Shown here in pieces: positions 3,800 to 39,960 of a stretch of DNA of 40,158 bases. Position numbers and translations under genes: made by a program. This DNA comes from Patescibacteria group bacterium (lineage in GTDB: Bacteria; Patescibacteriota; Minisyncoccia; Moranbacterales; GWC2-37-73), in assembly GCA_036391995.1 (NCBI GenBank), contig DASVYU010000021.1, forward strand, positions 1-40,158, given 5' to 3'. How positions within the stretch are numbered: position 1 is the stretch's first letter; the number at the start of each line of letters is the position of its first letter. The notes beneath the pieces were generated by a model. It made no database searches. It was not told where the DNA came from and saw only the letters and a program-made list of their open reading frames with translations.

Positions 3800-4675
3800 A
3801 TGCGAATGCGTAAAATTATTTTGTTTGTTGTGATATTTATAATAATGACTGTGGGCGCAGACAAGTCTAGTGCGTATTATTACGGTTCGCAAGGTTATAG
3901 TTCTACATGGTATCCGGGCGGAATAGGTAGTGGTCTGGATTCTCCTCAGTACACACATTCTTACGGTAGTTCATATTGGAATGCGGCCAATGATCCTACC
4001 TGTGTTTATCATTACTGTTCAAACCCTGGAGAAGATGAACAATACAAAAATGATCAGATCAAATATTATACTGAAAAAGTTACCACTTTTTGTTCTGTCA
4101 CCGGGGATCAGAAAAAATGTGACAAATATTGTGCAAGTTTGAAATCTTATAGTGGCAAAAGTGCGCTTTGTGGAGATGTCATCAAAAAAACATCTCCTGA
4201 CAAAAATGTTGATGCGAACAATGTTTCAACTGAAAAACAGGACAGTGAATCAAAAAAATCGGAAGATGCAAAAAAAGCAGAAGAGGCGAGAAATGCAGAG
4301 ATTGCGCAAAAAGAAAATGATGCGAAAACGGAAGTGCAAAACATGACACAGGAAGGTTCTGATTCAAATGTTCAAGTCACAGATGCGATAAATTCTTTAA
4401 ATAGAACTGGTGCTATTAGAAAGTTTTTTCTGGGCGTTGATATGTCTAAAATTGATAAATTGAAGGAAAGTTTTAGAAAAAACAAAGAAATAATACAACA
4501 GTTAGAATCTGTTTCACAACAAGAAGTTGCAAGTAATAATAGTGAAATAATGAATTCCGTTCAGCAGCAAATTGACGAGCTCAATAAAAGAAATATTTTG
4601 ATAGAAAATGCAATAAATGATAATGAGCTAAAAGTGGGCTTTATTTATTGGTTGAAAGGAATTTTTAGGAAATAA
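3800..4675 (+). CDS. Secreted hypothetical protein: signal peptide, an 8-Cys N-domain, a K/E-rich linker and a coiled-coil C-terminus
   Basis: MRMRKIILFVVIFIIMTVGA signal peptide, then a Cys-rich region (CVYHYCSNPG...FCSVTGDQKKCDKYCASL...ALCGD), then charged, coiled-coil sequence. No recognisable family. Confidence 0.5.
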   Translation: MRMRKIILFVVIFIIMTVGADKSSAYYYGSQGYSSTWYPGGIGSGLDSPQYTHSYGSSYWNAANDPTCVYHYCSNPGEDEQYKNDQIKYYTEKVTTFCSVTGDQKKCDKYCASLKSYSGKSALCGDVIKKTSPDKNVDANNVSTEKQDSESKKSEDAKKAEEARNAEIAQKENDAKTEVQNMTQEGSDSNVQVTDAINSLNRTGAIRKFFLGVDMSKIDKLKESFRKNKEIIQQLESVSQQEVASNNSEIMNSVQQQIDELNKRNILIENAINDNELKVGFIYWLKGIFRK

Positions 4676-4694: not shown

Positions 4695-5537
4695 ATGGAA
4701 GAACAGTTTATTCAGCAGGCTGGGGAAAGAAATGGAAACAATAGAATTTTTAAGAGGTTTTTTGAAATCTTCAAGCCTGGTTTTTTAGCTGAAAATTTAG
4801 ACACGATAGACTCTGGCAAGACTTGGAAATTTTGGTTTTTGAGCAACACTTTAGTTGCAATAGTTTTGACAATTATAATAGGATATACCATAAACAAAGG
4901 CATTGATGAAACTGCCAAAGAATTCCTTTTGAAATATCCTAATGCGAAAATATTTGTCAGTGGTGGAAAATTAAGCACTGAGGGCATAGACGAACCAATA
5001 TTTGAAAAATCAGACGATGGATCTGTGTTTGTTTTGGATACGAAAAATCAGAAATACGATGAAACTGTCCTTAGTGATTACAAAAAAGGCGTTTTTATCT
5101 CTTCTGACAAGATTTACAACAAAAAAAGCTCGATAGAAACGCAACAGTATGATATTTCAAAAATAAACAGGAATTTTTCTTTTACTCAAAAAGATCTCCA
5201 ATCAAAAGTTTGGATCTTGAAAGTATTTTTTATAGGCGTAGGCATATTTTTCGGATGGATTTATTTGAATGGTCTTAGATTGATCAGTGCTTTCTGGTGG
5301 GCTTTTTGGTTCTGGCTTCTTGCTGTTATCATGAAAATAGAAGGGGTTGGTTACAAGAATATATATTTTGCCGTGCTTAACTTTTATATCATTCCTCTGG
5401 TAATTTCGCTAGTATTGACGCTGTTTGGTTTGAATGTTGCATTTTTGACAACAATAATATTTTCAATCTTGTTTGTTGTAAATTTCTTGTTTATGAAAAA
5501 AAATCAAAAACAAAAAGAGGTTGTTATTAAAGAGTAA
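4695..5537 (+). CDS. Polytopic membrane protein, hypothetical
   Basis: One TM segment after about 50 aa, a soluble loop of about 120 aa, then 4-5 TM segments (WILKVFFIGVGIFFGWIYL...WWAFWFWLLAVIM...). No family could be assigned with confidence. Confidence 0.5.
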   Translation: MEEQFIQQAGERNGNNRIFKRFFEIFKPGFLAENLDTIDSGKTWKFWFLSNTLVAIVLTIIIGYTINKGIDETAKEFLLKYPNAKIFVSGGKLSTEGIDEPIFEKSDDGSVFVLDTKNQKYDETVLSDYKKGVFISSDKIYNKKSSIETQQYDISKINRNFSFTQKDLQSKVWILKVFFIGVGIFFGWIYLNGLRLISAFWWAFWFWLLAVIMKIEGVGYKNIYFAVLNFYIIPLVISLVLTLFGLNVAFLTTIIFSILFVVNFLFMKKNQKQKEVVIKE

Positions 5538-5611
5538 AATGGGGCGTAAAGAAGTTTTTATTTTATCTTTAAATTAGTTACAATTAATTTATAAATTTTT
5601 AAAACAATAAA

Positions 5612-6646
5612 ATGGAAGAAGGAAATATGGCAAATCCATTCGGAGCGGAGAATGCTTCAGAGGCGCAAACAAGCAGCGAGCAAAAACCTGAGCAAATCGT
5701 GGCGCCGGTTTCACAGGCTGCTGAAGTAAAGTATGCTGGTTTTTGGATTAGGTTGTTAGCTACTATTATAGATTTATTTCTTCCCGGAATTGTTGGAGTT
5801 ATTTTGGGATTTGTGGTTTTGTATATTTCACCAAAAAGTACTGGCAGTATTTATTTGACTATTACAAAGCTTATCATTATATGGGTTTACTATATTTGGA
5901 TGACTAACAAATATCAGGCAACGTTAGGCAAGATGATATTTGGATTAGGGGTTCAAAATAATGAGGGGAAAAAAGTTACTTTGGGGAAAATAGTGCTCAG
6001 GGAAACTATAGGGAAAATTCTTTCATGGATAACTCTTTCAATTGGTTTCATAATGGCTGGATTCACGAGGAGAAAGCAGGCTTTGCATGACAAAATAGCA
6101 GGTACAGTAGTTGTATATAAAGATAGCGGATTCCAGTCTTATTCCGGGCTGGTTTTGGGAGGATTTATTTTGGGAATATTTTCTTTTATTCCAGGTCTCG
6201 GTTTGTTTATTGGAGTTTTGGCTATTATATTTAGCGCAATTGCTTTTTTGGATGCAAAAAAGAATAAAAAACCCGGTAGGCGCATTGCAATAGCTGGAAT
6301 AATTCTTGGAATATTGGGAATAATGTTTACTATAGCACTTTATTCTTCATTGTATTATTTTGGATTTAAGGCTAAATCTGGCCCATTTACTGATATTAAA
6401 ATAGAAACAACAAAAACTATTTTGCAAAATACAGCAGGCTCCTTGGAGCTTTATAAAAAGGAACATGGAAACTATCCTGCTTCCATAAAGGATTTGCAAT
6501 CTGATAACAAAAGCGTTTTTGGAGAAGATTTTTATCAACAGCCACTATATTACAAAGTTTCTGGCGATGGACAATCATACGAGTTAAGAAGTATTGGTCC
6601 AGATGGGCAATATGGAACAGTGGATGATATTATTTTTGGCAAGTAA
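5612..6646 (+). CDS. Fusion protein: RDD-family membrane domain + DUF4190-like TM hairpins + C-terminal type II secretion pseudopilin (GspG-like) globular domain
   Basis: RDD-like N-terminus (YAGFWIRLLATIIDLFLPGIVGVILG). DUF4190-like segments (GLVLGGFILGIFSF...GRRIAIAGIILGILGIMF). The C-terminus matches the GspG C-domain pattern (LELYKKEHGNYPASIKDLQS...YELRSIGPDGQYGTVDDIIF) but has no prepilin leader. The start may be ATG 5627. Confidence 0.6.
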   Translation: MEEGNMANPFGAENASEAQTSSEQKPEQIVAPVSQAAEVKYAGFWIRLLATIIDLFLPGIVGVILGFVVLYISPKSTGSIYLTITKLIIIWVYYIWMTNKYQATLGKMIFGLGVQNNEGKKVTLGKIVLRETIGKILSWITLSIGFIMAGFTRRKQALHDKIAGTVVVYKDSGFQSYSGLVLGGFILGIFSFIPGLGLFIGVLAIIFSAIAFLDAKKNKKPGRRIAIAGIILGILGIMFTIALYSSLYYFGFKAKSGPFTDIKIETTKTILQNTAGSLELYKKEHGNYPASIKDLQSDNKSVFGEDFYQQPLYYKVSGDGQSYELRSIGPDGQYGTVDDIIFGK

Positions 6647-8971: not shown

Positions 8972-9577
8972 TTAGATGTTGAGCAATTCGTCCAGCTGCT
9001 TGTCGATGTCCTTGGACTCGGCTTCTTTCTTGCTCTTTTTTGGAGCTTCTTTCACCTCTTCAACTTTGGTTTCCTCGACTTTTTCTTCTTTGACTTCTTC
9101 CTTAATTTCAGCTATAGGCTTAACTTCCTCTTTGACTGCTTCCTTGGCTTCTGGCTTTGGGGCAGCTTTCTTTTCTGGGCGCTGAGCTTTGACTGGAGCT
9201 TGCTTGGCATTTCCGAGCTCTTGCTCTTTGCGGCGCTGCTTGGCTCCGAGATCTGGCAGATCTTCAGTCTTCACGATCAGGAAGCGGAGCACATCATTGT
9301 TGAGGTTCAGTTTGTTGGTGATGGCTTGGATGCCGAATTCTTTCTCAGCATTCTTTTCGTCAGCCCAATATTCGACCTCAGGAAGTTCGAAACGGCGGGT
9401 GATGTAGGTTCCGCGATTCTGGTGCTTGATTTCATAGGCAAGCTTCCTTTTTTCAACAATCTCTTCTTCGAGTATTGTTGCTCCTTCTTGAGTGAGCATG
9501 GCGCTCACGCTATTGCGGATCGCGTCGAGATTGGCCTCTTGGCGTTCTCCGACGAGATAGAACAGTTCGTACTGCAT
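8972..9577 (-). CDS. rpsF: 30S ribosomal protein S6 with a long K/E/A-rich C-terminal extension
   Basis: The S6 core begins at MQYELFYLVGERQ (ATG at 9577; the ORF tool start at 9592 adds MYNKI). A low-complexity KEEVKEE tail of about 90 aa follows. Confidence 0.85.
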   Translation of the reverse strand: MQYELFYLVGERQEANLDAIRNSVSAMLTQEGATILEEEIVEKRKLAYEIKHQNRGTYITRRFELPEVEYWADEKNAEKEFGIQAITNKLNLNNDVLRFLIVKTEDLPDLGAKQRRKEQELGNAKQAPVKAQRPEKKAAPKPEAKEAVKEEVKPIAEIKEEVKEEKVEETKVEEVKEAPKKSKKEAESKDIDKQLDELLNI

Positions 9578-9598
9578 AATTTTATTATACATTATTTA

Positions 9599-9660
9599 TT
9601 AACGGGTTAACGGGTTAACGCGTTAGGGATTCCAACTCGTGAACTCGTGAACTCGTGAAC
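9599..9660. promoter_or_regulatory. Upstream module, left copy: 3x CCGTTAAC-type tandem octamers and 3x CTCGTGAA tandem octamers; reads toward rpsF
   Basis: ttaacgggttaacgggttaacgcgtta ... aactcgtgaactcgtgaactcgtgaa. The reverse complement is present at 16120-16182. The distance from the GTTAAC repeats to the rpsF ATG is 21 nt. Confidence 0.6.
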
Positions 9661-9735
9661 TGTTGAATAAATAAACCCTCCAATAAAGAAAGCCGCGCCT
9701 TTTGGAGGATTCTTCCGACTTATCCTTTTGTTAAG

Positions 9736-9857: not shown

Positions 9858-10019
9858 GATCTTTAGAGTATTTTTTGTAGTGCGAAAAAATATAAAAAAT
9901 ACTCTGGAAGTCAATTTCCAGGCTAGCAATCTTTACAACTGAATTAATGAAATGAAAGGAGGGAAAAGGATTTGAGATTGTAAAATCCAAGAGAGGACTG
10001 AGTGGAAGTTAAACATCAA

Positions 10020-11981
10020 CGACAAGAAAAGGAGAGTAAGATGAAAGAAATGATTCCGCATTTGCCCTCATGGATCCCGTACCTGCTGTTTCTTCTGCCC
10101 GTTGCCTTCTGCATCGTCTTCTACCGTCTCGTGATCCGGATCGGCGGAGTGGTCATCATTCCGGAAGATTCCATAGGGATCGTGAACAAGAAGTTTGTGC
10201 TCTGGGGGACAAACAAGAACTTGCCCGACGGCAAGATCATCGCCCTCAATGGCGAGGCTGGCTGGCAGGCCGACGCGCTTGCTCCCGGTGTGCATTACCG
10301 GAAGTGGCCATGGCAGTACGAGATCAAGATTGAGAAGATGTTCGTCGTGCCGGCTGGTAATATCGCTACTGTGTATGCCAGAGACGGCGTCGCGATCGAG
10401 GGAGGCCGAGTTCTCGGCAGGAAGGTTAACTGCGACACATTCCAGGATGCCAGGAAGTTTCTGGTAAACGGAGGGGAGCGCGGTCAGCAGATCGCCTTCA
10501 TTCCCCAGGGAACATACCGTATCAACACCGCTCTGTTTGAAGTAAAGACGGAAAAGGTCTACGAAGTTCCGAGCGGGAAAGTCGGCGTTATCACGACCAA
10601 GGATGGCAAAGAACTGCCCAAGGACGAGATCGCCGGTGAGAAAGTAGATGGGCACGATTCCTACCAGAACGGCCAGGCTTTTATGGACAATGGCGGCTGG
10701 AAAGGGCGTCAGGCGCAGGTCATTCTTGCCGGACGGTATTTTATCAACCCGTTCTTTGCCGAAGTGGAACTGGTCGACATGACGGAGGTTCAGATCGCGC
10801 ATGTAGGCGTCGTCATCCAGCTCTACGGCAAGGCTGGTACCGATGTTTCCGGTGATGATTTCCAGCATGCCAGCCTGGTTGGACAGGGAGAGAAGGGCGT
10901 CTGGAGGGACCCACTTGACCCTGGTCTCTATGCGATCAACCCCTGTACCCACAAGGTTGTCCAGGTGCCCACGCAAAACATCGTCCTTAACTGGGCCGAT
11001 GATACCTTTGAATCGCACAGGTATGACGAAAAACTGAGCTCGATCACTGTCCGTTCCATGGACGGTTTCAGCTTCACGCTGAACGTCAGCCAGATCATCC
11101 ACATTTCCCGTAACTATGCTTCCTACGTGATTGCGCAGTTCGGCAGCGTGGAGAGTCTGGTCAACAACGTGTTGTCGCCGCTGATCGGAAACTACTTTCG
11201 AAACAGTGCGCAGAACAGCAATGTGATCTCTTTCCTGAGCGAGCGCAACCAGCGCCAGGATCAGGCCAAGGACAAGATCCAGGAAGTTTTGACCAAGCAT
11301 CATGTCACTTCGGTCGACACGCTGATTGGCGACATTAATCCGCCGGAAGAACTGCTCGAACCGCTCAAACAGAAACAGATCGCCGAGCAGCAGAAGCTCA
11401 CCTTCGCTGTCCAGCAGGAAGCTCAGGTGGAACGGCAAAAACTGGAACAATCTAGAGCCATGGCTGAAACCCAGGCGAGCGTCGTTTCTTCGGAGCGCCA
11501 GGTGGCGATCAAAAAGTTCGGTGCTGAAGCTGTCCAGGAAGAAGCCAAGGGTACGGCCGGCGCCAAGACGATCAACGCCAAGGCGGACGCTGAGGTGCTG
11601 AAAGTCGTCGGTATGGCCGAGGCTGAGAAAATCAAGGCTGTCGGTGGTGCCGAAGCGGATGTTATCAAGCAGAAGATTGATTCCATGGAAGCCGGTAACT
11701 ATGCCCTGGTTCTCGTGGCGGAACATCTGGCTAAAGCTGGGGTGCCCTTGGTACCGCAGATCACGGCTGGTGGAAGTGGTGGTGCTGAAGGCGGGCTGGT
11801 CAATGTCCTCCTCGGAACGCTGCTTCACGACAACCTGAAAAAGGCGGCTGTAACACCAGCTGCGGCTCCGCAGGCTGCCCATCTCGAAGCCGTAGCAGCT
11901 GCTGAACCGGCTGCAGCACCCGCTGCCTCGGCGTCCGAAGAGAGGAATGAGCCGGCTGCAGGCGAATCTGTCGAGGAATAA
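10020..11981 (+). CDS. Flotillin-like SPFH protein (YqiK/FloT family), in a high-GC island
   Basis: N-terminal TM (IPYLLFLLPVAFCIVFY), an SPFH core, and a flotillin-type C-terminal AEAE region (VVGMAEAEKIKAVGGAEADVIKQKIDSMEAGNYALVLVAEHLAKAGVPLVPQI). Strong SD (aaaaggagag) before ATG 10020. Local GC about 57%. The ORF tool start at 10002 is 6 codons longer. Confidence 0.75.
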   Translation, partial: RQEKESKMKEMIPHLPSWIPYLLFLLPVAFCIVFYRLVIRIGGVVIIPEDSIGIVNKKFVLWGTNKNLPDGKIIALNGEAGWQADALAPGVHYRKWPWQYEIKIEKMFVVPAGNIATVYARDGVAIEGGRVLGRKVNCDTFQDARKFLVNGGERGQQIAFIPQGTYRINTALFEVKTEKVYEVPSGKVGVITTKDGKELPKDEIAGEKVDGHDSYQNGQAFMDNGGWKGRQAQVILAGRYFINPFFAEVELVDMTEVQIAHVGVVIQLYGKAGTDVSGDDFQHASLVGQGEKGVWRDPLDPGLYAINPCTHKVVQVPTQNIVLNWADDTFESHRYDEKLSSITVRSMDGFSFTLNVSQIIHISRNYASYVIAQFGSVESLVNNVLSPLIGNYFRNSAQNSNVISFLSERNQRQDQAKDKIQEVLTKHHVTSVDTLIGDINPPEELLEPLKQKQIAEQQKLTFAVQQEAQVERQKLEQSRAMAETQASVVSSERQVAIKKFGAEAVQEEAKGTAGAKTINAKADAEVLKVVGMAEAEKIKAVGGAEADVIKQKIDSMEAGNYALVLVAEHLAKAGVPLVPQITAGGSGGAEGGLVNVLLGTLLHDNLKKAAVTPAAAPQAAHLEAVAAAEPAAAPAASASEERNEPAAGESVEE

Positions 11982-13833: not shown

Positions 13834-13987
13834 TGGACAATTCGGTTGTAGAGTTGTAATATATATAACTAAGTCTAAGTTTTAAATTTTAAGTTTGAAA
13901 TGAGTTTTAAATGACTAAATGTTTTAAAACTTAGGCATTTAGGATTGAATTAAAATTTAAAAATTAGCCCTTAAAACTTGTGTAGTC

Positions 13988-15946
13988 ATGGATTTTGAGA
14001 TTTCTAGCAAATATAAGCCTGCCGGCGATCAGCCGCAGGCCATTGAATTGCTCACATACGGGCTGGAACATCAGCAGAAGTTTCAGACGCTTTTGGGTGT
14101 GACTGGATCGGGCAAGACTTTCACGATTGCCAATGTGATCGAGAATGTGCAGAAGCCCACTTTGGTGATCGCGCCCAACAAGACTTTGGCAGCGCAGCTG
14201 GTGCAAGAATTTCGCACCTTCTTTCCCAAGAACGCTGTGGAATATTTCGTGTCCTATTACGACTATTATCAGCCGGAAGCCTACATCGCTTCGACTGATA
14301 CATATATCGAAAAGGAAGTACAGATCAATGATGAGATCGACAGATTGCGTCATGCTGCAACCTCCGCTTTGCTTTCCAGGCGCGATGTGATCATCGTTGC
14401 ATCGGTTTCCTGCATCTACGGCTTGGGAAGCCCGGACTATTATCGTGAAGGGACTGTTTCGGTTGTTGTCGGAGAAAAAGCTTCACGCGAAGCGATCATG
14501 AAAGGCATGATAGATATGCAATATCATCGCAGTGAGGTTCTGGAGCGCGGCAAGTTCCGCGTGATCGGCGACACGATCGAAGTGATCACGCCTGGCAGAG
14601 AGATCGTGTCACGCATCGAATTGGAAGATGGCTTGGTCAAAAGAATCCAAGAATATGATTTCCTGACGGGCGAAAAACTGGGAGATCTCAAGCAGACGCT
14701 TATTTATCCAGCCAAACATTTTGTGGTGCCAGAACCTGTCATGCAGGCAGCACTGGAAGAGATTGAACAGGAAGCCAAGGAAAGAGTGGAATATTTCAAA
14801 GCCAAAGGCAAGCTTCTGGAAGCGGAGAGGATTTCTCGCAGAACCAAACAGGATCTGGAGATGATGCGCGAGATCGGCTATTGCAATGGCGTGGAGAATT
14901 ATTCGCGCTATCTGACAGGCCGTAATGAAGGCGAGCCGCCATACACTTTGGTGGATTATTTCCCGGAAGATTTTCTTTTGGTGATCGATGAATCGCACGT
15001 GACCATCCCGCAGCTTAGTGCCATGTATAACGGGGATCGTGCCAGAAAAGAAGCGCTGATCGAAAACGGCTTCCGTCTGCCGAGCGCTTTTGACAATCGC
15101 CCGCTCAAATTTCCGGAATTCGAATCGCACATCAACCAGCTCATTTTCACTTCGGCTACTCCTGGAGCATATGAGAAGCAGAATTCTTCCCAGATGGTGG
15201 AACAGATCATCCGCCCGACGGGGCTCATCGACCCGGAGCTCATCATCAGGCCAGCCAAGGGGCAGGTCAAAGATGTGCTGCCTGAAATAGAGAAGGTCAT
15301 CGAGAAAAAGGAACGCGTCTTGATCACGACGCTCACTAAGAAGATGGCGGAGGATCTGGCGGAATTCTTGAAGGAACATGGCATCAAATGCGAGTATCTG
15401 CATTCCAGTGTGGACACTCTGGATCGCATCAGGATATTGGAAGGCCTCAGGCGAGGGGATTTCGACGTGCTGGTGGGAGTCAATCTTCTGCGCGAAGGCT
15501 TGGATCTGCCGGAAGTTTCCCTGGTAGCCATTCTGGATGCGGACAAGGAAGGATTCTTGCGCAGCGAGACTTCGCTCATCCAGACCATAGGCCGCGCCGC
15601 GCGTAACGTGAACGGCAGAGTGCTTCTCTATGCTGACAACATGACCGGCTCCATGCAGAGGGCGATCGATGAGACCAATCGCCGCCGGGAGAAGCAGCTG
15701 GCCTACAACAAGAAGCACGGCATCACCCCTAAGACTATCCAGAAGAACATCAAATCCATCGTGGATCACGAGATCAACCCCCAGGTACCGACTGATTTTT
15801 CACAAGTGGAATCCCTAGAGGACATTGCTGGCTACATCAAACAGAAAGAGAAAGAGATGAAAGACGCGGCCCGTGCCCTGGAGTTCGAGAAAGCGGCTCT
15901 TATCCGCGATGAGATTTCCCAGCTCAGGAAATTGCAAATAAAATAG
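13988..15946 (+). CDS. uvrB: Excinuclease ABC subunit B
   Basis: Helicase motifs (GVTGSGKTF; DESH), a beta-hairpin region and a C-terminal UVR domain ([18 protein letters not shown]). Confidence 0.95.
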
Positions 15947-16051: not shown

Positions 16052-16119
16052 TTGCGTACATTTATAATGCCTAGTAAAATACAAGAGACTCAAGGTCTCC
16101 TTTGTAGTTGGTTGAAAAG

Positions 16120-16182
16120 TTCACGAGTTCACGAGTTAGCGGGTTTATTTATCCAACGCGTTAACCCGTTAACCCGTTAACT
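16120..16182. promoter_or_regulatory. Upstream module, right copy: 2x TTCACGAG and 3x GTTAACCC-type octamers; reads toward the DsbA-like gene
   Basis: ttcacgagttcacgag ... aacgcgttaacccgttaacccgttaac is the reverse complement of 9599-9660. It sits 18 nt before ATG 16201, the same geometry as at rpsF. Confidence 0.6.
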
Positions 16183-16200
16183 GAATAATAAATATTCAAT

Positions 16201-18029: not shown

Positions 18030-20948
18030 ATGGAAGACAAGATAATAATCCGCGGGGCAAGGGAACATAATTTGAAGAACATAAACCTTGATCTGCCGCG
18101 AGACAAATTCATAGTGTTTACGGGACTTTCAGGGTCGGGAAAATCGACCCTGGCTTTTGATACGATTTTCGCTGAAGGACAGAGGAGATATTTGGAAAGC
18201 CTTTCAAGCTACGCGCGCCAATTCTTGGGGCAGATGGACAAGCCGGATGTGGATCATATCGAAGGGCTTTCGCCGGCTATCTCCATCGACCAGAAATCTA
18301 CCACGCACAACCCGCGCTCGACCGTGGGAACTGTGACGGAAATCCATGATTATCTGCGTCTGCTCTATGCCAAAATCGGCGTTCCGCATTGTCCGGTCTG
18401 CGGACGTGAGATTTCTAAACTATCCACTGATGAAATCGTGGATCGCATTTTGGAGCTGTCTGAAAAACATTCGCAGACAATTGAGATCCTTGCTCCGGTC
18501 GTGCGCGAAAGGAAAGGTGAATATCTGGCGCTTTTGGATGACATGTGGAAAAGAGGATTTTCCGAGGCGACAGTGGATGGCAAACGCATGCAGCTGGAAG
18601 ATTTCAAGGATATGAAACTTGAACGTTACAAGAAACACAGCATCGACATTGTGGTAGACAAATTGACTGTCAGTGAAGATAGCATCACGCGCATATTCGA
18701 AGGCGTGGAAAGATCGCTTCGCATGGCGGAAGGATTGGTGAAAATAAGATGCATCTCCAATGAAGCTAAAAGCCAAAAGCTAGAAGCTAAAAGCCATTCG
18801 AAGTGTTTTGCGGAGCAGATTTTCAATCAGAAACTTTCCTGTCCGATCCATGACATCCAATTTCCGGAATTGGAGCCGCGTCTTTTCTCTTTCAATTCTC
18901 CCTATGGCGCCTGTGAAGCTTGCGAAGGATTGGGACTCAAGAAGGAGATCGATCCGCATCTGATCATGCCTGACATAAACAAGACGATCGCGGAGGGAGG
19001 TTTTGCTCCTTGGAATTTCAAGAAAAACAACTATTATGGCGGCGTGATACTGTCAGCCGCACGCTTTTTCAATGTGCCCGACAATGTGCGCTTGCGTGAT
19101 CTGCCCAAGAAGAAGCTCAATCTAATGCTCTACGGAACCACCGAAGAAGGCATGGAGGCGACAGAGGAAGATGCTGAGGAGATTCCGATCACCATAAGGG
19201 CCAAGACTGGTACTAATTGGAAATTCTACATGGAATGGCACGGCGTGCTTGGTTTCATGCGAGACAGGTATTTTAAGACCGAGTCAGACACAGTGCGTGC
19301 GAACATGGAGAAATATATGTCGCAGAAGCCTTGCAGTGTCTGCAAAGGCTCACGTTATAAGCGCGATGTGCTTTTGGTGACGGTGGGAGAAAAAAACATC
19401 CATGAAGTCTCCACTTTGAGCGTGTCTGATTCCAAGCAATTCTTCGAAGATTTGAAACTGACCAAAAGAGAAACCATGATTGCGGGCAGGATCCTCAAGG
19501 AAATAAACGCGCGCCTGACATTCTTGAACAATGTGGGCTTGGATTATCTCACGCTGCATCGCGCGGCTTATTCTCTTTCAGGTGGTGAAGCACAGCGCAT
19601 CCGTTTGGCTTCGCAGATCGGCTCGCAATTGGTGGGAGTCTTGTATATCCTGGATGAACCATCGATCGGACTGCATGCGCGTGACAACACCAAGCTCATA
19701 GAGACTCTTAGGCAATTGCAGGAAATAGGCAACACTCTGATCGTGATCGAGCATGATGAAGAAATGATGCGGCATGCAGATTGGTTGGTGGACATCGGAC
19801 CAGGCGCCGGCAAGCATGGCGGCGAAATCATTGCACAAGGCAAACCTGAAGATGTTATCGCAAGCAAGAAATCCCTGACGGGCAAATACCTGCGAGGCGA
19901 ATTGGAAATCGAAATTCCCAAGATGCGCCGCGCAGTCAATAAGAAAAAATTCATCACGGTGAGAAATGCCAGTGAGCATAATCTCAAGAATGTGACAGCG
20001 GAATTTCCGCTTAGAGTTTTCACTTGCGTGACAGGTGTTTCCGGCTCGGGAAAATCGACTTTAGTGGAAGACACTTTGTATAAAGCTTTGGCCAACAAAC
20101 TGCACCGCGCTTTGGATGTGCCTGGCAGGCATCAGGAAATCGTGGGTATCGAGAACATCAACAAAGTCATCATGATCGACCAGTCGCCGATCGGACGCAC
20201 GCCGCGCTCGAATCCTGCGACATATACGGGACTTTTCACGCATATCCGCGAACTGTTCGCGCAGACAAAAGATGCCAAACTCCGAGGCTATGGTCCAGGC
20301 AGGTTCTCATTTAACATTGCCGGCGGGCGCTGTGACAACTGTTCCGGAGAAGGATTCTTGAAAATAGAGATGCAATTCATGCCAGACGTCTATCTGCCTT
20401 GTGATGTCTGCTCAGGTAAGAGATATAACAGTGAGACATTGCAAGTGAAATATAAAGGCAAGAATATTTCCGAAGTTCTTGGCATGACTGTTTCGGAAGG
20501 CGCGGAATTCTTCGCAGCTTTTCCTAAGATCGCTGAACCATTGAAAGTTTTGGAAGATGTAGGATTGGGCTATATCGAGCTAGGGCAGAGCGCAACGACT
20601 CTCTCTGGAGGAGAAGCGCAGAGAATCAAGTTGGCAGCGGAACTTTCGCGCCGTGCGACGGGTGACACGCTGTACATTCTGGACGAGCCAACCACGGGCT
20701 TGCATTTCGATGACATTAAAAAACTTTTGGGAGTATTGAATCGTTTGGTGGATGCTGGCAACACAGTGGTTGTCATTGAGCATAATATGGATGTCATCAA
20801 GACTGCAGACTGGATCATAGACATGGGACCGGAAGGTGGAGATGGCGGAGGACGCATCGTGGTAACAGGCTCGCCGGAAGAAGTCATCAAATATCACAAG
20901 GAAAGCTACACGGCGAAATATCTGAGAGAAGTGCTCAAGAAAAAATAG
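18030..20948 (+). CDS. uvrA: Excinuclease ABC subunit A, full-length class I type
   Basis: Two ABC modules ([10 protein letters not shown]; [12 protein letters not shown]), signature LSGGEAQR twice, zinc-finger and insertion domains. Contains an in-frame tandem-repeat insert at 18762-18800. Confidence 0.95.
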
Positions 20949-21940: not shown

Positions 21941-23329
21941 ATGAATTTGTCCAGTATAAAGCAAAAAATAGCTCAGTTGCCTCAGAATCCGGGGGTATAT
22001 TTTTTCTGCGACTCGGCAGGGGCAATCCTCTATATAGGCAAGGCGACGAATTTGAGAAGCCGGGTTTCTTCCTATTTCCGTGGTTTTGGTGCGGGGGAGT
22101 TGAGCTCCCAAATGCAAAAAGGGAGCTCAACTCCCTTTGTGGCTGGAAGAAGTGAGTGGATTGGTTTAATGGTTTCGCAAATTGCAAATATTGATTTTCA
22201 AGAAACAGACAGCGTCTTGGAAGCGCTCATTCTGGAAAGCAACCTGATAAAGAAGCATCAGCCCAAATACAACACGCTGGAAAAGGACGACAAGAGCTTT
22301 GCGTATTTTGTGATTACCAAAGAGGATTTTCCACGCATCTTGATTCTTCGAAAAACTGATATTGATTTTGAAAATCTAGAAGCTAAAAGCTATAAGCTAA
22401 AAGCTATCTTCGGCCCATACACAAGCAAATACCAGATGGAAACGGCGCTCAAAATCATGCGCCGGATCTTTCCGTTCCATGCGCTCAAGCAGAAAACAGA
22501 AAAAGGCTGTTTGGATTTCCAGTTGGGCATGTGTCCTGGTCCATATGAAGGCGCGATCTCCAAAGAGGATTACAAAAAGAATATCCGCGGCATCCGGATG
22601 ATCCTGGAAGGCAAGAAAAAAAGATTAGTGACGACATTGGAAAAAGAGATGCAGATCCTTGCCAAAAAAAACGAATTCGAAAAAGCTGCCGAGATTCGCA
22701 ACAAAATATTCGCACTCAATCATATTATGGATATTGCGCTTATGACTAGAGATTTTGATAATTTAGAATTTCCAATTTCGAATTTCGAATCAAATCAGAA
22801 TGACATAATTTCGAAAAATAAATCATTAGAAATTCATTCAAAATTCAAAATTCAAAATTCAAAATTGTTCAGGATTGAGGCATATGATATTTCAAATATT
22901 TCTGGACAAAATGCAGTGGGCTCAATGGCGGTTTTTGAAAATGGAAAACCTGCTAAATCACAATATCGCAAATTCAAGATAAAAACGATTGAAGGCAGCG
23001 ATGATGTGGGCAGCATGCGAGAGGTCTTGTCACGGCGCTTCCACAATGATTGGCCGATGCCTGATCTTATTCTGCTCGATGGTGGGCAAGGGCATTTGAA
23101 TATGGCAACAAAACTGTTATTGGAAGAAATGGGCTTGGCTTTGAATATCGCAGCTGTTGCCAAAGGTCCCACCCGCAAGAAGTTGGATGTGCGAATCGCT
23201 GGATCTGTGCCACCTTCAGTCAAGTATATTCTGGCGGATCAGAATCTTTTGAAGTCCATCATGGATGAAGCGCATCGTTTCGCGATCACATTCCATCGCA
23301 AGCTCCGCCGCAAAAACGCTTTGCAATGA
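21941..23329 (+). CDS. uvrC: Excinuclease ABC subunit C, compact form lacking the C-terminal HhH domain
   Basis: GIY-YIG (GVYFFCDSAGAILYIGKATNLRSRVSSYF ... EALILESNLIKKHQPKYN), a UVR domain (EFEKAAEIRNKIF) and an RNaseH-like endonuclease domain (RIEAYDISN...). Likely start at ATG 21941. Carries three in-frame inserts (22095-22135, 22372-22404, about 22760-22870). Confidence 0.85.
   Translation: MNLSSIKQKIAQLPQNPGVYFFCDSAGAILYIGKATNLRSRVSSYFRGFGAGELSSQMQKGSSTPFVAGRSEWIGLMVSQIANIDFQETDSVLEALILESNLIKKHQPKYNTLEKDDKSFAYFVITKEDFPRILILRKTDIDFENLEAKSYKLKAIFGPYTSKYQMETALKIMRRIFPFHALKQKTEKGCLDFQLGMCPGPYEGAISKEDYKKNIRGIRMILEGKKKRLVTTLEKEMQILAKKNEFEKAAEIRNKIFALNHIMDIALMTRDFDNLEFPISNFESNQNDIISKNKSLEIHSKFKIQNSKLFRIEAYDISNISGQNAVGSMAVFENGKPAKSQYRKFKIKTIEGSDDVGSMREVLSRRFHNDWPMPDLILLDGGQGHLNMATKLLLEEMGLALNIAAVAKGPTRKKLDVRIAGSVPPSVKYILADQNLLKSIMDEAHRFAITFHRKLRRKNALQ
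22095..22135. repeat. Perfect 15-bp-arm palindrome inserted in-frame in the uvrC GIY-YIG region
   Basis: GGGAGTTGAGCTCCC-aaatgcaaaaa-GGGAGCTCAACTCCC. It encodes extra residues (GELSSQMQKGSSTPF) between SYFRG and the conserved MVSQIANIDF. Confidence 0.8.
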
Positions 23330-26239: not shown

Positions 26240-29017
26240 ATGAAAAAAAAGATAACACTGGAGATTTCCGGAATGCATTGCTCCTCATGTGAGCTGATCA
26301 CTAGGGAAGAATTGGGGGAAATGGAAGGCGTGAGTGAGATAATGATTGATCATCAAAACGGCACTGGAAGCGTCGTGATTGATGATGAAAAAACATGCAG
26401 TGAGCATGTGATTGCAGCAATAAAGAAGGCTGGCTATGAAGCTAAGGTGGTCAAGGAGGAATCTCTTAAGGAAACTACCGACGACATGCACCAGCTCAAA
26501 CAGGCAGTGCTGGGCATGGCCATTGACGTGAAAGAGCTCAAGAATGCCGTGCTTTCTTCCAGCCCGACTCAAACAAAAGTCAGTCCGACTGCTGCAAATG
26601 CGCCGACTACTGGAGATGCGAACAAAAGAGTGAGTTTGTCGCTTATCGGTATGCACTGCGCGTCTTGCGCCAACATTATTGAGCGCCAGCTCAAGAAGAC
26701 TCCGGGAGTTAAACAGGCTAATGTGAATTTTGCGGCTGAAAAGGCTTCCGTGGTTATGGATGAAAATGCGACAGATATCCAGAAATTGATCGATGCTGTT
26801 TCGCGTGCGGGATATAAAGCTGAAACGGTCGATGCCAAAGATACGGAATATGAAACAAGAAAGCGTGAAAAAGAAATAGCATCCTATTTCAACAAGTTTA
26901 TCTTCGGATTGGTTTTGAGTCTGCCGATGCTATATTTCATGCTGCTCGATTTCTTCAAATGGCTGCCTGGTGAAAAGACGCTGGCTCCATATGTCGGGGT
27001 GTTCTCATTGCTGCTGACCATTCCGGTGCAGTTTATTATTGGCGCAGGATTTTACAAGGGTGCTTGGGCATCATTCAAAATGAAGACGTTCAATATGGAT
27101 AGCTTGATCGCGATCGGAACATCGACAGCTTTCTTTTACAGTTTGTTCAATTTCGCTGCATATGCTGCCAAGAATGGTTCGCTTATAGGTTTGGATGGAA
27201 TGAAAATTCCCAATCTTTATTTTGAAACGGCAGCATATTTGATCACTTTCGTTGTGTTGGGAAAATGGCTGGAAATACGCACCAAAGGCAAGACATCTGA
27301 CGCGATCAAGAAGCTGATGGGATTGCAGGCCAAGACAGCGCGAGTTATCAGAAATGGACAGACACTGGATGTTGCGGTGGACGATGTTTTGCATGGTGAC
27401 ATCGTGATTGTGCGTCCAGGAGAAAAAGTTCCAGTGGATGGAAAAATTACCAAAGGATCTTCAGCTGTGGATGAATCTATGATTACGGGAGAGAGTATCC
27501 CTGTGGAGAAAAATGTCGGAGATTGTGTCATCGGGGGAACAGTCAATAAGACAGGAAGTTTTGAGTTCGAAGCGACCAAAATCGGAAGCGAAACTGCTTT
27601 GGCACAGATAATTCGCTTGATTGAAGAAGCTCAAGGATCCAAAGCGCCAATACAGAATTTTGCTGACAAAATTTCAGCGTGGTTTGTGCCAGTCGTTATT
27701 GGTTTGGCAATCATTACATTTGTGGTTTGGTATTTTGCTCTTGGTGAGACGCTGACATTTGCGCTTATGGCATTCACTTCGGTGATTGTGATTGCTTGTC
27801 CGTGCGCATTAGGGCTAGCTACTCCGACCTCGCTCATGGTTGGAACTGGCAAGGGCGCTGAATATGGAGTGCTGGTCAAAGGCGGGGAGGCTTTGGAGGC
27901 TGCTTCGCATATTGATGCAGTGGTGTTCGACAAAACCGGAACTCTTACGCATGGAAAACCTGAAGTTACGGATATCTTAGCTTTGAGTGATATGGACGAG
28001 GATGAGATATTGGCAGTTGCTGCCAGCTTGGAAAAGCTTTCAGAGCATCCATTGGCGGAAGCCATCTGCAATTATGCCGAAGAAGAGGATGTTGCGCTGG
28101 AAGAAGTCCACAATTTCAATTCGATCACTGGCCGAGGCGTGCAGGGCGATGTGAGTGGGGTGACATATTATGTTGGAACGCGCAAATTGATGATCGAGAC
28201 CCTTGGCTTGGATGTGAAAAAGATTGAACGCAAAATGGCTCGCTTGGAAGAGCAAGGGAAAACCGCAATGCTCTTGGCAACCAAAGAAGGATTGGTTGGA
28301 ATCATCGCAGTGGCTGACACGGTCAAAGAAACTTCGCGCGAAGCTGTGGAAAAACTCAAGAAAATGGGAATTGAAGTTTGGATGATCACGGGAGACAATA
28401 CTCGTACTGCCAAAGCGATCGCTTCGCAAGTCGGCATAACCAATGTGCTTTCGGAGGTTCTGCCCGAGGATAAAGCTAATGCAGTAAGGGCTTTGCAGGG
28501 AGAAAACATTTCTTCTATAAATGAAAATTGGAAATTGAAAATTGAAAATTTAGGAGCGAAGCGACGAGTGGCTATGGTTGGAGATGGCATCAATGATGCT
28601 CCAGCACTTGCTCAAGCCAATGTTGGCATAGCCATGGGAAGCGGCACGGATGTGGCTATGGAAGCAGGTGACATTGTGATTATGAAAAATGATCTCAACG
28701 ATGTTGTTACCAGCTTCCAATTATCCAAGGAGACAATGGGCAAGATCAAACAGAACATGTTCTTTGCTCTTTTCTACAATGTGATCGGTATTCCGATTGC
28801 AGCTCGCGTTTTCTTCGCATTCGGTTTGGTGCTTAAGCCGGAGTTGGCGGGACTAGCCATGGCCATGAGTTCCATTTCAGTGGTGGGAAATTCCTTGCTG
28901 CTTAAGTTGTTTAAGTCAAACAAGCGCAATTGGATTTCCATGGTGGCGCCGATTGTCATGATTGTTATGTTTACTTTGGGATTCATTATGTTTGCGCGTT
29001 TCAGTTCGCAGATGTAA
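26240..29017 (+). CDS. copA: Copper-translocating P1B-type ATPase
   Basis: Two N-terminal HMA domains (SGMHCSSCE; [10 protein letters not shown]), the CPC motif ([11 protein letters not shown]), DKTGTLT and GDGINDAP. An in-frame AT-rich repeat insert at about 28503-28556 encodes [18 protein letters not shown]. Confidence 0.9.
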
Positions 29018-35471: not shown

Positions 35472-35644
35472 GACTGCAAATAGACTGTCTTTACTTTTCA
35501 GGTTTTTTCTGGTACCATGTGTTATTAGCAAATCATAAATCTGAATTTATAAGTCCTAAGTGTAATAGGTTTAAAAATACGGGCTTTCTCGGGTTTTGAA
35601 TTTATTTAGAAATTAGGATTTAGAAATTAGAAATTTTATTTATT

Positions 35645-38648: not shown

Positions 38649-39107
38649 TCAAAGTAACATAAGTACGATTGCCAATATTGAAAAGATGATGTCGTTTCTG
38701 CCATTTCGTAGATTCCAATCATAACGTTTGTCGCCTTTGGGGTAGGGGTGGACCCAAGCATGGAACTGGAAAAGCTTGTAGAGTAATTTGAAATTAAGTT
38801 TCCAATAAAGCACAGTGAGCAGGTCGGGAAACATGGAAGCAAAAGTTCCAATCAGGATGTTTCTGATGATTAAGATGGTAGGGTGAAAAAGCAGAATATA
38901 TGCACCCACAATGGAAAGACCAGCAACAAGATCGATTGCGACTTTCCACCAAGTGTTGGCAAATGTGGATTTGCGATTGAGATATTCTCCGTGGCGAAAA
39001 CTATCCAAAAAGAAATGTAGTGGCAAAGCAATGAGTATTATTAGCCAAGGGTTGGAAACATGTTTTCCCAAGGCAGCGCCGACCAAGGCATGAGTGGTGA
39101 GGATCAT
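38649..39107 (-). CDS. Membrane protein, possibly a YdjM/DUF457-like membrane-bound metal-dependent hydrolase
   Basis: Starts MILTTHALVGAALG, then 3-4 TM helices. The family assignment is tentative. Confidence 0.4.
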   Translation of the reverse strand: MILTTHALVGAALGKHVSNPWLIILIALPLHFFLDSFRHGEYLNRKSTFANTWWKVAIDLVAGLSIVGAYILLFHPTILIIRNILIGTFASMFPDLLTVLYWKLNFKLLYKLFQFHAWVHPYPKGDKRYDWNLRNGRNDIIFSILAIVLMLL

Positions 39108-39246
39108 AGGGATTAAATTTTCAATTTATAATTTTTAATTTTCAAACAATGTTCAATTTTTCAATGATTCAAATTTCAAACATTTAGAAGTTTGGTCATT
39201 GGAAATTGTTTAGAAATTGAAAATTGAAAATTAGAAATTCATTTTT
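39108..39246. repeat. AT-rich heptamer-repeat divergent intergenic region of the (GAAAATT)n / (AATTTTC)n family
   Basis: The left half is rich in aattttcaa units and the right half in gaaattg/gaaaatt units, making an imperfect large dyad between the divergent YdjM-like gene and rsmI. Similar tagaaatt repeats lie at 35581-35644. Confidence 0.6.
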
Positions 39247-39960
39247 ATGAATAAAAATGGAACATTATATATCGTCGCGACTCCCATCGGCAATCTGGAA
39301 GACATCACTTTCAGGGCCGTGAGGATTTTGGGCGAAGTTGATCTGGTTGCCTGCGAAGACACGCGTGTGACCAGCAAACTTCTTTCGCATTATAGCATAT
39401 CCAAACCGCTCATTTCTTTGCATCATCACAGCGGCAAAGCTCAATTTGAAAAGATCGTTGCGGAGCTGGAAAACGGAAAAAATGTCGCTTATTGCTCTGA
39501 TGCTGGCACGCCCGGAGTGTCTGATCCGGGAAACAGGCTTGTGGAAGATGCGCTGCAAAGCAATATTGCTGTCGTACCGATTCCTGGAGTCTCTGCTCTA
39601 ACGGCTCTTGTGAGCGTGGCTGGTATGGATATGCAGAACTTCTCTTTTGCCGGCTTTCCTCCACACAAGAAAGGCAGGGAGACTTTTTTTAGGAAAATCG
39701 TGAACACCCAGGAACCTGTCATTTATTATGATTCTCCGCACAGGGTAATCAAGAACATCCAATTGCTAAAAGAATTGACTGAAAAAGAAAAGAATGTCTC
39801 TGATCTCGCGGCCGGCACTTTTGGCAAGCAAATCATCATCGGTCGCGAGCTGACAAAGATGTTCGAACAGATCGTCAGAGGCAATATGGGCGATGTCATC
39901 GCCTATTTTTCCGAGCATCCAGATAAGCTCAAGGGCGAATTCGTTATTATTGCTTATTGA
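39247..39960 (+). CDS. rsmI: 16S rRNA (cytidine1402-2'-O)-methyltransferase RsmI, tetrapyrrole-methylase fold
   Basis: LYIVATPIGNLEDITFRAVRILGEVDLVACEDTRVTSKLL ... a typical RsmI. Confidence 0.85.
   Translation: MNKNGTLYIVATPIGNLEDITFRAVRILGEVDLVACEDTRVTSKLLSHYSISKPLISLHHHSGKAQFEKIVAELENGKNVAYCSDAGTPGVSDPGNRLVEDALQSNIAVVPIPGVSALTALVSVAGMDMQNFSFAGFPPHKKGRETFFRKIVNTQEPVIYYDSPHRVIKNIQLLKELTEKEKNVSDLAAGTFGKQIIIGRELTKMFEQIVRGNMGDVIAYFSEHPDKLKGEFVIIAY

Follow-up and report, generated by a model that had tools for sequence, protein, structure and literature searches.

A palindromic repeat with heptamer arms, probably a small mobile element, in genes and spacers of Candidatus Moranbacteria

Heptamer arrays in and between genes

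The DNA analysed here, referred to below as the window, is a 40,158-nt contig (DASVYU010000021.1, assembly GCA_036391995.1) from a Patescibacteria group bacterium, in which an AT-rich heptamer repeat occurs both in intergenic spacers and in frame within two genes, uvrC and copA. The uvrC gene (21941-23329, + strand) encodes a 462-aa protein with GIY-YIG (residues 17-111), UVR (227-259) and RNase H-like endonuclease (308-449) domains, the nearest relatives being Moranbacteria. Pfam identified no C-terminal (HhH)2 domain. Relatives are 403-587 aa long, and the short architecture appears to be typical of the lineage. The copA gene (26240-29017, + strand) encodes a 925-aa CopA-type P1B Cu+ ATPase with two HMA domains.

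The original prediction had placed heptamer arrays in uvrC, in copA and in two intergenic regions, and Tandem Repeats Finder (TRF) detects 7-nt arrays at every one of these places. Those in uvrC lie at 22760-22790 (unit AATTTCG, 4.4 copies) and 22836-22866 (ATTCAAA, 4.4 copies, 100% matches), the one in copA at 28522-28550 (TGAAAAT), and the intergenic ones at 35606-35635, 39116-39142 and 39214-39237. A lag-7 autocorrelation scan of the 40-kb window returned 10 period-7 segments, against 0.0 in locally shuffled sequence; the same scan gave 0-1 segments for each of the periods 4-6 and 9-13. Five of these arrays are intergenic and five genic, the latter in uvrA (one), uvrC (three) and copA (one). 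The arrays in the window are real and lie far above chance. An assembly or sequencing artefact in low-complexity, AT-rich DNA might be suspected, given that the source is a contig of a metagenome-assembled genome and that short tandem repeats are error-prone in assembly. We find this hardly credible, since assemblies made independently by many projects and pipelines (NCBI, ENA, JGI and Logan) have the same structures, at the same gene positions and with intact frames.

The uvrC arrays at 22760 and 22836 are the two arms of a single palindrome, which had been overlooked. This full-length, 107-nt copy (22760-22866, - strand, the '+' strand of the element being antisense to the gene) reads on the coding strand as (AATTTAG AATTTCC AATTTCG AATTTCG), a 51-nt centre and (CAAAATT)x4. 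Its inverted repeat pairs 22760-22811 with 22815-22866, giving 52-nt arms that are 75% complementary around a 3-nt loop. A second full-length copy, of 124 nt and recognised by both profile and hairpin (39116-39239, + strand), fills the spacer between a gene for a 152-aa protein (38649-39107, - strand) and an rsmI-like TP_methylase gene (39247-39960), with each end 7-8 nt from a start codon. Two further copies are single arms: a remnant of 18 in-frame codons in copA (28499-28552, - strand, boundaries +/- ~6 nt), and a solo right arm, TTTAGAAATTAGGATTTAGAAATTAGAAATT (35598-35635, + strand), found by TRF and by an earlier version of the family profile 10 nt upstream of the start of a second uvrA paralogue (35645).

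Period 7 is a feature of the lineage as well as of the window. In 80 uvrC loci from species-representative genomes it was nearly the sole enriched period, and the enrichment was concentrated in Moranbacteria and rare in other Parcubacteria. Within 1.25 Mb of Moranbacteria loci, 115 period-7 arrays were found, made of many unrelated units, and 78 of them lie within open reading frames (ORFs) of at least 150 aa. This pattern speaks for microsatellites formed in situ, where slippage expands AT-rich heptamer seeds and only multiples of 3 nt, for example 21-nt blocks, are kept within genes. Many bacteria have an excess of heptameric simple sequence repeats (SSRs), for which polymerase slippage is a possible cause (PMC4692102).

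A dispersed palindrome with fixed ends

The wider family could be traced from a 23-mer in the core of the 39116-39239 copy, TCATTGGAAATTGTTTAGAAATT, which occurs exactly in 92 metagenome stretches, several contigs having 2-3 copies. The 74 distinct copies share one arrangement, (AATTTTC)3-4 CAAACAATG - variable centre - TCATTGGAAATTGTTTAGAAATT (AGAAATT/GAAAATT)2-4, in which the conserved core around the variable centre runs from CAAACAATG to TCATTGGAAATTGTTTAG. The termini are sharp, with AATTTTCAATT at the left and TTAGAAATT at the right, and the flanks are unrelated between these copies. Copy lengths range from 79 to 151 nt with modes at 107 and 124-125 nt. The complementary arms measure ~35-50 nt, and the whole-element hairpin has z scores of -5 to -6; that of 39116-39239 folds at -34.6 kcal/mol (z -5.7). 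With so gappy an alignment, the RNAalifold consensus of 56 copies retains no more than a 9-bp stem, and we claim no covariation from it. Some copies are solo halves and some have nested GC-rich hairpins. The nested insertions that interrupt copies are themselves tiny palindromes, for example CGCCATTGGCG, CCGCCTCTTCGGCGG and CCTGCCTGCCGGCAGGCAGG, seen in L088 (~400-513), L096 (~1590-1640), L145 (~3830-3900) and L129/L171 (here and below, L numbers denote the loci and contigs compared).

An nhmmer profile was built from 56 metagenome copies, with the sequences of the window and of L005 left out. It matched the intergenic copy (39116-39238, model 1-119, + strand, E 2.9e-21) and, end to end, the uvrC copy (22761-22866, model 1-119, - strand, E 1.9e-6). 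The copA arm corresponds to the left arm of the model (28504-28550, model 1-47, - strand, E 0.0095, or 4.5e-4 with an earlier profile), and the arm at 35598-35635 to its right arm (model 87-124, + strand, E 9e-4 with the earlier profile). The same copA site is also matched in L002 and L004. These matches, together with the comparison of orthologues, bear out the proposal that one repeat family is present both between genes and in frame within uvrC and copA.

The idea of a satellite grown in place does not survive this anatomy, as the heptamer units are parts of a discrete, dispersed palindrome whose termini are fixed, whose non-repetitive centre is conserved and whose copies fall into fixed length classes of 107 and ~124 nt. 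Slippage in situ leaves all of these unexplained, as it does the inverted pairing of the arms and the presence of near-identical whole elements at non-orthologous sites. The suggested expansion in frame-preserving 21-nt blocks also fails, for the inserts are of 107-108 nt and 54 nt, neither a multiple of 21. What slippage does account for is the variation in arm unit number, from 2 to 5 between copies, and the state of the orthologous copA arms, which are internally homogeneous and differ between genomes as whole arrays (GAAAATT, GGAAATT or CAAAATT), so that slippage or conversion probably acts within arms. We consider an origin by microsatellite expansion quite improbable; 7-nt slippage or homogenisation probably plays a secondary part within the arms.

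Dispersal is seen directly when copies and sites are compared. The window copy upstream of rsmI is 86% identical, centre included, to a copy upstream of uvrB in L005, and the orthologous rsmI spacer in L084 is empty, with a length of 23 nt. Likewise, where L041 has a copy, the spacer of L006, L033 and L008 consists of 15 nt of AT-rich sequence. A 107-nt copy of the uvrC type lies in frame in a GT4-like glycosyltransferase ORF (L128) and is 82-85% identical to the uvrC copies; a half copy was found in a MiaB-like ORF. In L107, a 16S rRNA gene (1382-2517; Rfam bacterial SSU, 899 bits) has a full copy (1837-1957) inserted at its h17/V3 loop, where the flanking rRNA stem CACGA/TCGTG lengthens the hairpin.

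A different, 49-nt insertion occupies the same h17/V3 loop in the 16S rRNA gene of L101, downstream of which group II intron D1-D4 and a catalytic intron of group I are matched (4789-4866 and 5435-5677). Introns in rRNA operons are typical of the Candidate Phyla Radiation (CPR), to which the ultra-small Moranbacteria belong. Arrays of (CAAAATT)4 are present in 25 viral contigs, none of them as part of a full element. For example, two IMG/VR contigs carry a sharply bounded GAATT(CAAAATT)4 block in a LeuRS-like ORF of normal GC content (L187, 12474-12501; L192, 6754-6781). These contigs may be of cellular origin, and they place solo arms outside Moranbacteria-like contexts as well. Full-text searches found no account of such elements in Patescibacteria or CPR within the literature searched.

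Copies inside genes

The uvrC copy encodes residues 274-309, NLEFPISNFESNQNDIISKNKSLEIHSKFKIQNSK(L). Its 107 nt amount to ~35.7 codons between the UVR and endonuclease domains, in agreement with the ~35 additional residues originally proposed; the net gain over the orthologues with the shortest linker is ~24 aa. In alignments of 27 and then 120 Moranbacteria sequences, UvrC has at least 5 hot spots of variable length, and the insert sits in one of these, the UVR-endonuclease linker, which spans ~16 to >50 residues. Solved UvrC endonuclease domains align from residue ~311, just past the insert. An AlphaFold model based on the 120-sequence alignment (mean pLDDT, the per-residue confidence score, 80.9) has residues 265-307 as coil with pLDDT <50 between confident domains, so the modelling that had been suggested as a check predicts the insert to be a disordered interdomain linker. 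FPISNFESNQNDIISK is an example of a peptide derived from such an insert.

Comparison of the window with L081 or L082 gives 88-89% identity for the uvrC insert and 68-70% for the remainder of uvrC, where third positions are saturated. At third codon positions alone, identity is 75-91% within the insert vs 47% elsewhere in the gene. Either, therefore, the element is much younger than the divergence of the gene, or its nucleotide sequence is under constraint. On a neighbour-joining tree of poor resolution, the UvrC sequences that bear the element are scattered. The uvrC-type copies found in the uvrC genes of four genomes share 86-93% identity; they may represent either one old, constrained insertion or repeated gains.

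The copA insertion could be delimited in the same way. The repeat had been described as lying directly before the GDGINDAP motif, and comparison with orthologues resolves it as an 18-codon insertion at that point: PEDK and VAMVGDG are 126 nt apart in the window vs 72 nt in the empty genes of L003 and L007. In L002, L004 and L005, copA has GGAAATT or CAAAATT units at this position, amounting to 57-63 additional nt. In alignment with Archaeoglobus fulgidus CopA (3J09), 19 residues of the window protein stand opposite a 19-residue gap just before the strand of the GDGINDAP motif, a position likely to be a surface turn. Orthologues that lack the repeat DNA have no segments of equivalent length in its place; the presence of such segments would have told against insertion.

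Copies within genes differ from those in spacers exactly where stop codons would arise. Stops are present in all six frames in 56 of the 58 intergenic copies examined, and the genic copies show AATTTCT changed to AATTTCC/G, GAAAATT to CAAAATT or GGAAATT, and TTTAG to ATTCG. Counted over all loci compared, the arm units of intergenic copies are mainly of the types AG (206) and GA (183), as opposed to CA (33), TC (21) and CG (11) on the coding strand of genic copies and GG (35) and TG (18) in antisense ones. In the copA arm of the window (GAAAATT GGAAATT GAAAATT GAAAATT), the lone G substitution turns an in-frame TGA into TGG. The absence of stops at these positions means that the inserts are read by the ribosome. 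Translational bypass or splicing can accordingly be dismissed, given that the genic copies are both stop-free and in frame. Copies that are out of frame or contain stops do not survive, and this is what preserves the reading frame.

A further property of the arms follows from arithmetic. As 7 has no common factor with 3, an arm of stop-free heptamers gives the same 7-residue repeat in all three frames: CAAAATT yields QNSKFKI, and GGAAATT yields GNWKLEI, in any frame. Only the centre and the total length then constrain the frame, and the same peptides recur in different proteins. In-frame inserts are present in UvrC, CopA, the glycosyltransferase, the MiaB-like protein, ArgS and the UvrA of relatives, and the insert peptide, ...FPISNF(E/Q)SN.ND.ISK...EI.SKF(K/E)I(Q/R)NSK, is conserved; in ArgS the insert was recognised in a fragment by the signature ISNFQFPISN. 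Protein searches with the 40-aa insert peptide gave no candidates, and a search of representative sequences returned only a spurious 5768-aa eukaryote-like repeat protein; peptide-level searches of this kind fail because of low-complexity filtering.

The recurrence of FPISNF...SKFKIQNSK in several proteins could also be expected of a module selected by the host, serving either as a flexible, heptad-like linker peptide or, as nucleic acid, as a hairpin acting in cis (a structure in 5' leaders or intergenic RNA, a terminator, an RNase III site, or a DNA site for nucleoid proteins or replication). The placement of the intergenic copies would fit such a role, as in most of the 58 contexts they end 0-13 nt from start codons or overlap stop codons, and most genes of the window have AT-rich leaders without a Shine-Dalgarno sequence. 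Nucleotide conservation is above that of synonymous sites in host genes, and one strand folds better than the other: the '+' strand of the family is more stable in 47 of 56 copies (means -25.8 vs -22.3 kcal/mol; Wilcoxon p 6e-7). Against this, the 58 copies have no preferred orientation relative to the flanking genes (start/end 22, end/start 13, none/start 8), copies decay to halves and carry nested insertions, and orthologous spacers and proteins do without the element; the peptide is modelled as disordered and is missing from many close UvrC orthologues. A search of Rfam 15 likewise gave no gathering-level match in the window and only chance-level ones on the elements (rli60, E 0.79; mir-653, E 0.068). 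Overall, selection for a host function seems to us an unlikely explanation.

Other repeats share these genes. A second heptamer family (AAAAGCT), in frame in both uvrA and uvrC, had been overlooked. In uvrA (ORF 18030-20948), TRF and the period scan identified an AAGCTAA/AAGCCAA array (18761-18797, + strand), part of a ~17-aa insertion relative to the shortest UvrA orthologues. In uvrC, an AAAAGCT-type array (22370-22409, + strand) encodes ENLEAKSYKLKAIF, including the peptide LEAKSYKLKA; it is conserved in many orthologues, and the array segment, residues 144-156, is modelled as ordered, not as a disordered insert (pLDDT ~92-93 over residues 141-160). No intergenic copies of the AAAAGCT/AAGCTAA family were present in the loci compared. 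We also considered a genome-specific heptamer unit reused at many sites and rejected it, unit sharing being 18.2% within and 15.1% between loci (permutation p ~0.21). Further repeat-derived peptides recur in frame at the same UvrC hot spots (..LTRNPE..MLKQVQHDK.., SLRGSTLPKQSR..SGSPRIFEYKNSRDD, QNTRYKIQDT and MEHGTWN, in homologues P0012, P0014, P0015, P0032, P0040, P0111 and P0112), which suggests that several further small repeat families colonise Moranbacteria proteins.

The two UvrA paralogues of the contig (18030-20948 and 35645-38479) accompany uvrC and uvrB (13988-15946), and the second paralogue (~47% identity) adjoins uvrC or copA in many Moranbacteria loci. Upstream of uvrB, TRF and the period scan located an AT-rich, heptamer-periodic hairpin, (AAGTTTT/AAATTTT)...(AATTAAA/ATTTAAA), at 13874-13966 (-19.3 kcal/mol, z -2.6). 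It has no nhmmer match to the family profile and may be a degenerate relative of the element. The sole other enriched period in the window is 8, represented by two tandem octamer blocks of ~80 nt (9594-9670 and 16109-16189), each (AGTTCACG)2-3 followed by (CGTTAACC)3. The blocks are mutually reverse complementary on the + strand. Each precedes a start codon by 12-25 nt and in the same orientation, one that of rpsF (8972-9592, - strand) and the other that of a 355-aa thioredoxin-like gene (16201), and they look like a shared operator or promoter module. Finally, the stretch with an SPFH/Band-7 gene (10002-11981), where an ORF of 604 aa runs antisense, has a local GC content of 0.55-0.56 vs ~0.45 for the window and is possibly foreign.

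A mobile element and its known counterparts

We think it likely that these repeats constitute an element resembling MITEs (the miniature transposable elements with inverted repeats) and Rickettsia palindromic elements (RPEs), palindromic and with heptamer arms, that is widespread in Candidatus Moranbacteria. It would be a small, non-coding mobile element whose full copy, of 107 or ~124 nt, forms one long hairpin. Most copies occupy the short AT-rich DNA that separates a stop codon from the start codon that follows. A coding-compatible subtype, in which TAA, TAG and TGA are replaced, could survive within genes only when in frame and in a permissive loop or linker, and would be translated there as a disordered peptide. 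After insertion, palindromes would degrade until a single arm is left, the state seen in copA and at 35598, and 7-nt slippage would homogenise the arms. The data above establish membership of the family, its dispersal, the empty sites, the stop-free adaptation and the location in a linker; active transposition, an enzyme that performs it and neutrality for the host are parts of this reading that we infer.

Several observations weigh against it. No conserved or duplicated flanking bases, as expected of a target-site duplication, were found in 58 copies, although a duplication may hide within the AATT termini. A longer element combining these termini with a transposase was not found, in the course of work that included no systematic search for one; the window itself shows no transposase gene. 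Viral contigs lack the core 23-mer, so that no vector is known. The uvrC-type centre (GAATCAAATCARAATGAYANAATTTCG) had 0 matches in a first metagenome scan, a result that is uninformative because uvrC orthologues carrying that centre are also absent from the collection. Heptamer families that are not palindromic (AACATGG, AAATACC, ATCAGTC and AAAAGCT) lie at the same linkers and fall outside this element. Lastly, 20 of the 22 in-ORF profile matches have the '+' strand antisense to the gene, which is not the mark of random insertion. In this orientation the mRNA carries the weaker hairpin; for example, the uvrC copy folds at -32.4 kcal/mol (z -5.25) antisense vs -18.0 (z -2.9) as mRNA. The bias could reflect selection against strong mRNA structure or the spread of one dedicated, coding-compatible subtype. 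Stop content was rejected as its cause, as the favoured orientation has more stops in the intergenic consensus.

More tentatively, the repeats might belong to a CPR-specific class of selfish DNA specialised for functional sequences. Its arms would be neutral with respect to frame, its hairpin would be tolerated within rRNA helices, and its stop-free subtype would spread between genomes to the same loops without target-site duplication, possibly by a mechanism based on single-strand hairpins. If this possibility were true, such DNA would be a major source of unexplained insertions in Patescibacteria proteins and rRNA, and the same machinery would lie behind the wider excess of varied period-7 arrays that is specific to the lineage. 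If the element is only a MITE, it would be a useful entry in the catalogue, though no surprise.

The rRNA and proteins of Patescibacteria are known to contain odd insertions, mostly of unexplained origin. A searchable element now accounts for some of them, in UvrC, UvrA, CopA, a glycosyltransferase, a MiaB-like protein and one 16S rRNA. In practice, the element makes it possible to mask the peptides derived from it (FPISNF.., SKFKIQNSK and GNWKLEI), which if left in place could misdirect homology searches as well as alignments and phylogenies. That every reading frame of the arms gives one and the same peptide is a simple, previously unremarked route by which repeats become tolerable in coding DNA.

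Among known repeats, the cyanobacterial short tandemly repeated repetitive (STRR) heptanucleotides are heptameric SSRs. The present arrays resemble heptameric SSRs in their tandem 7-nt units, their restriction to a lineage, their over-representation relative to other periods and the occasional inverted pairs. SSRs such as GGGAATC in Xanthomonas and GGGGA(T/C)T in Nostoc (PMC4692102) are intergenic, G-rich and often long, whereas the Moranbacteria element is AT-rich, has 2-5 units per arm and a unique core, and lies in frame in genes. A satellite of the SSR or STRR kind has no unique component, in contrast to the conserved core, fixed ends and fixed lengths seen here. Repetitive extragenic palindromes and the mosaic elements built of them (REP/BIME) are palindromes of 20-40 nt with a GTAG or CGTC head (PMC3733652); the element, at 107-124 nt, is larger and AT-rich, and has neither GTAG nor CGTC at its ends. 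Tiny hairpin mobile repeats within ORFs also exist in cyanobacteria, and they differ from the element in size (21-27 nt) and phylum. Elhai and colleagues reportedly described these small dispersed repeats, or MITEs, in 2008 as hairpin-forming sequences of 21-27 nt within genes, in ORFs and in heptamer arrays.

Closer are the classical bacterial MITEs (ERIC, Correia/NEMIS, RUP and BOX), the next nearest analogue after the RPEs. With these the element shares a length of 107-125 nt, long imperfect terminal inverted repeats, tens of dispersed copies in short gene-adjacent spacers, nested insertions and solo halves. By size (<~500 bp, without coding capacity of its own), terminal inverted repeats and dispersal with filled and empty sites it would pass for a MITE. 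It departs from them in that no TA or other target-site duplication was detected and no cognate insertion sequence is known, and in the internal 7-nt periodicity of its inverted repeats.

The closest functional analogue is provided by the RPEs (Ogata et al. 2000), which, in the outline given in PMC10969869, are palindromes in frame in housekeeping genes and encode peptides. Within that outline, the likeness extends to a palindromic, non-autonomous structure of ~100-150 nt, to a presence both in intergenic DNA and in frame within unrelated housekeeping genes, and to the addition of a conserved peptide at positions compatible with the fold. The element differs from RPEs in its host, Patescibacteria and not Rickettsiales, and we claim no relationship in sequence; in its arms of tandem heptamers, which are insensitive to frame; in that only a subtype is ORF-compatible and most intergenic copies are not; and in its additional presence in a 16S rRNA loop. 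It works like an RPE and is not a member of that group, a distinction drawn by host lineage and not by comparison with RPE sequences. As such, it offers a second, independent system, beside the RPEs of Rickettsia, in which selfish DNA becomes protein.

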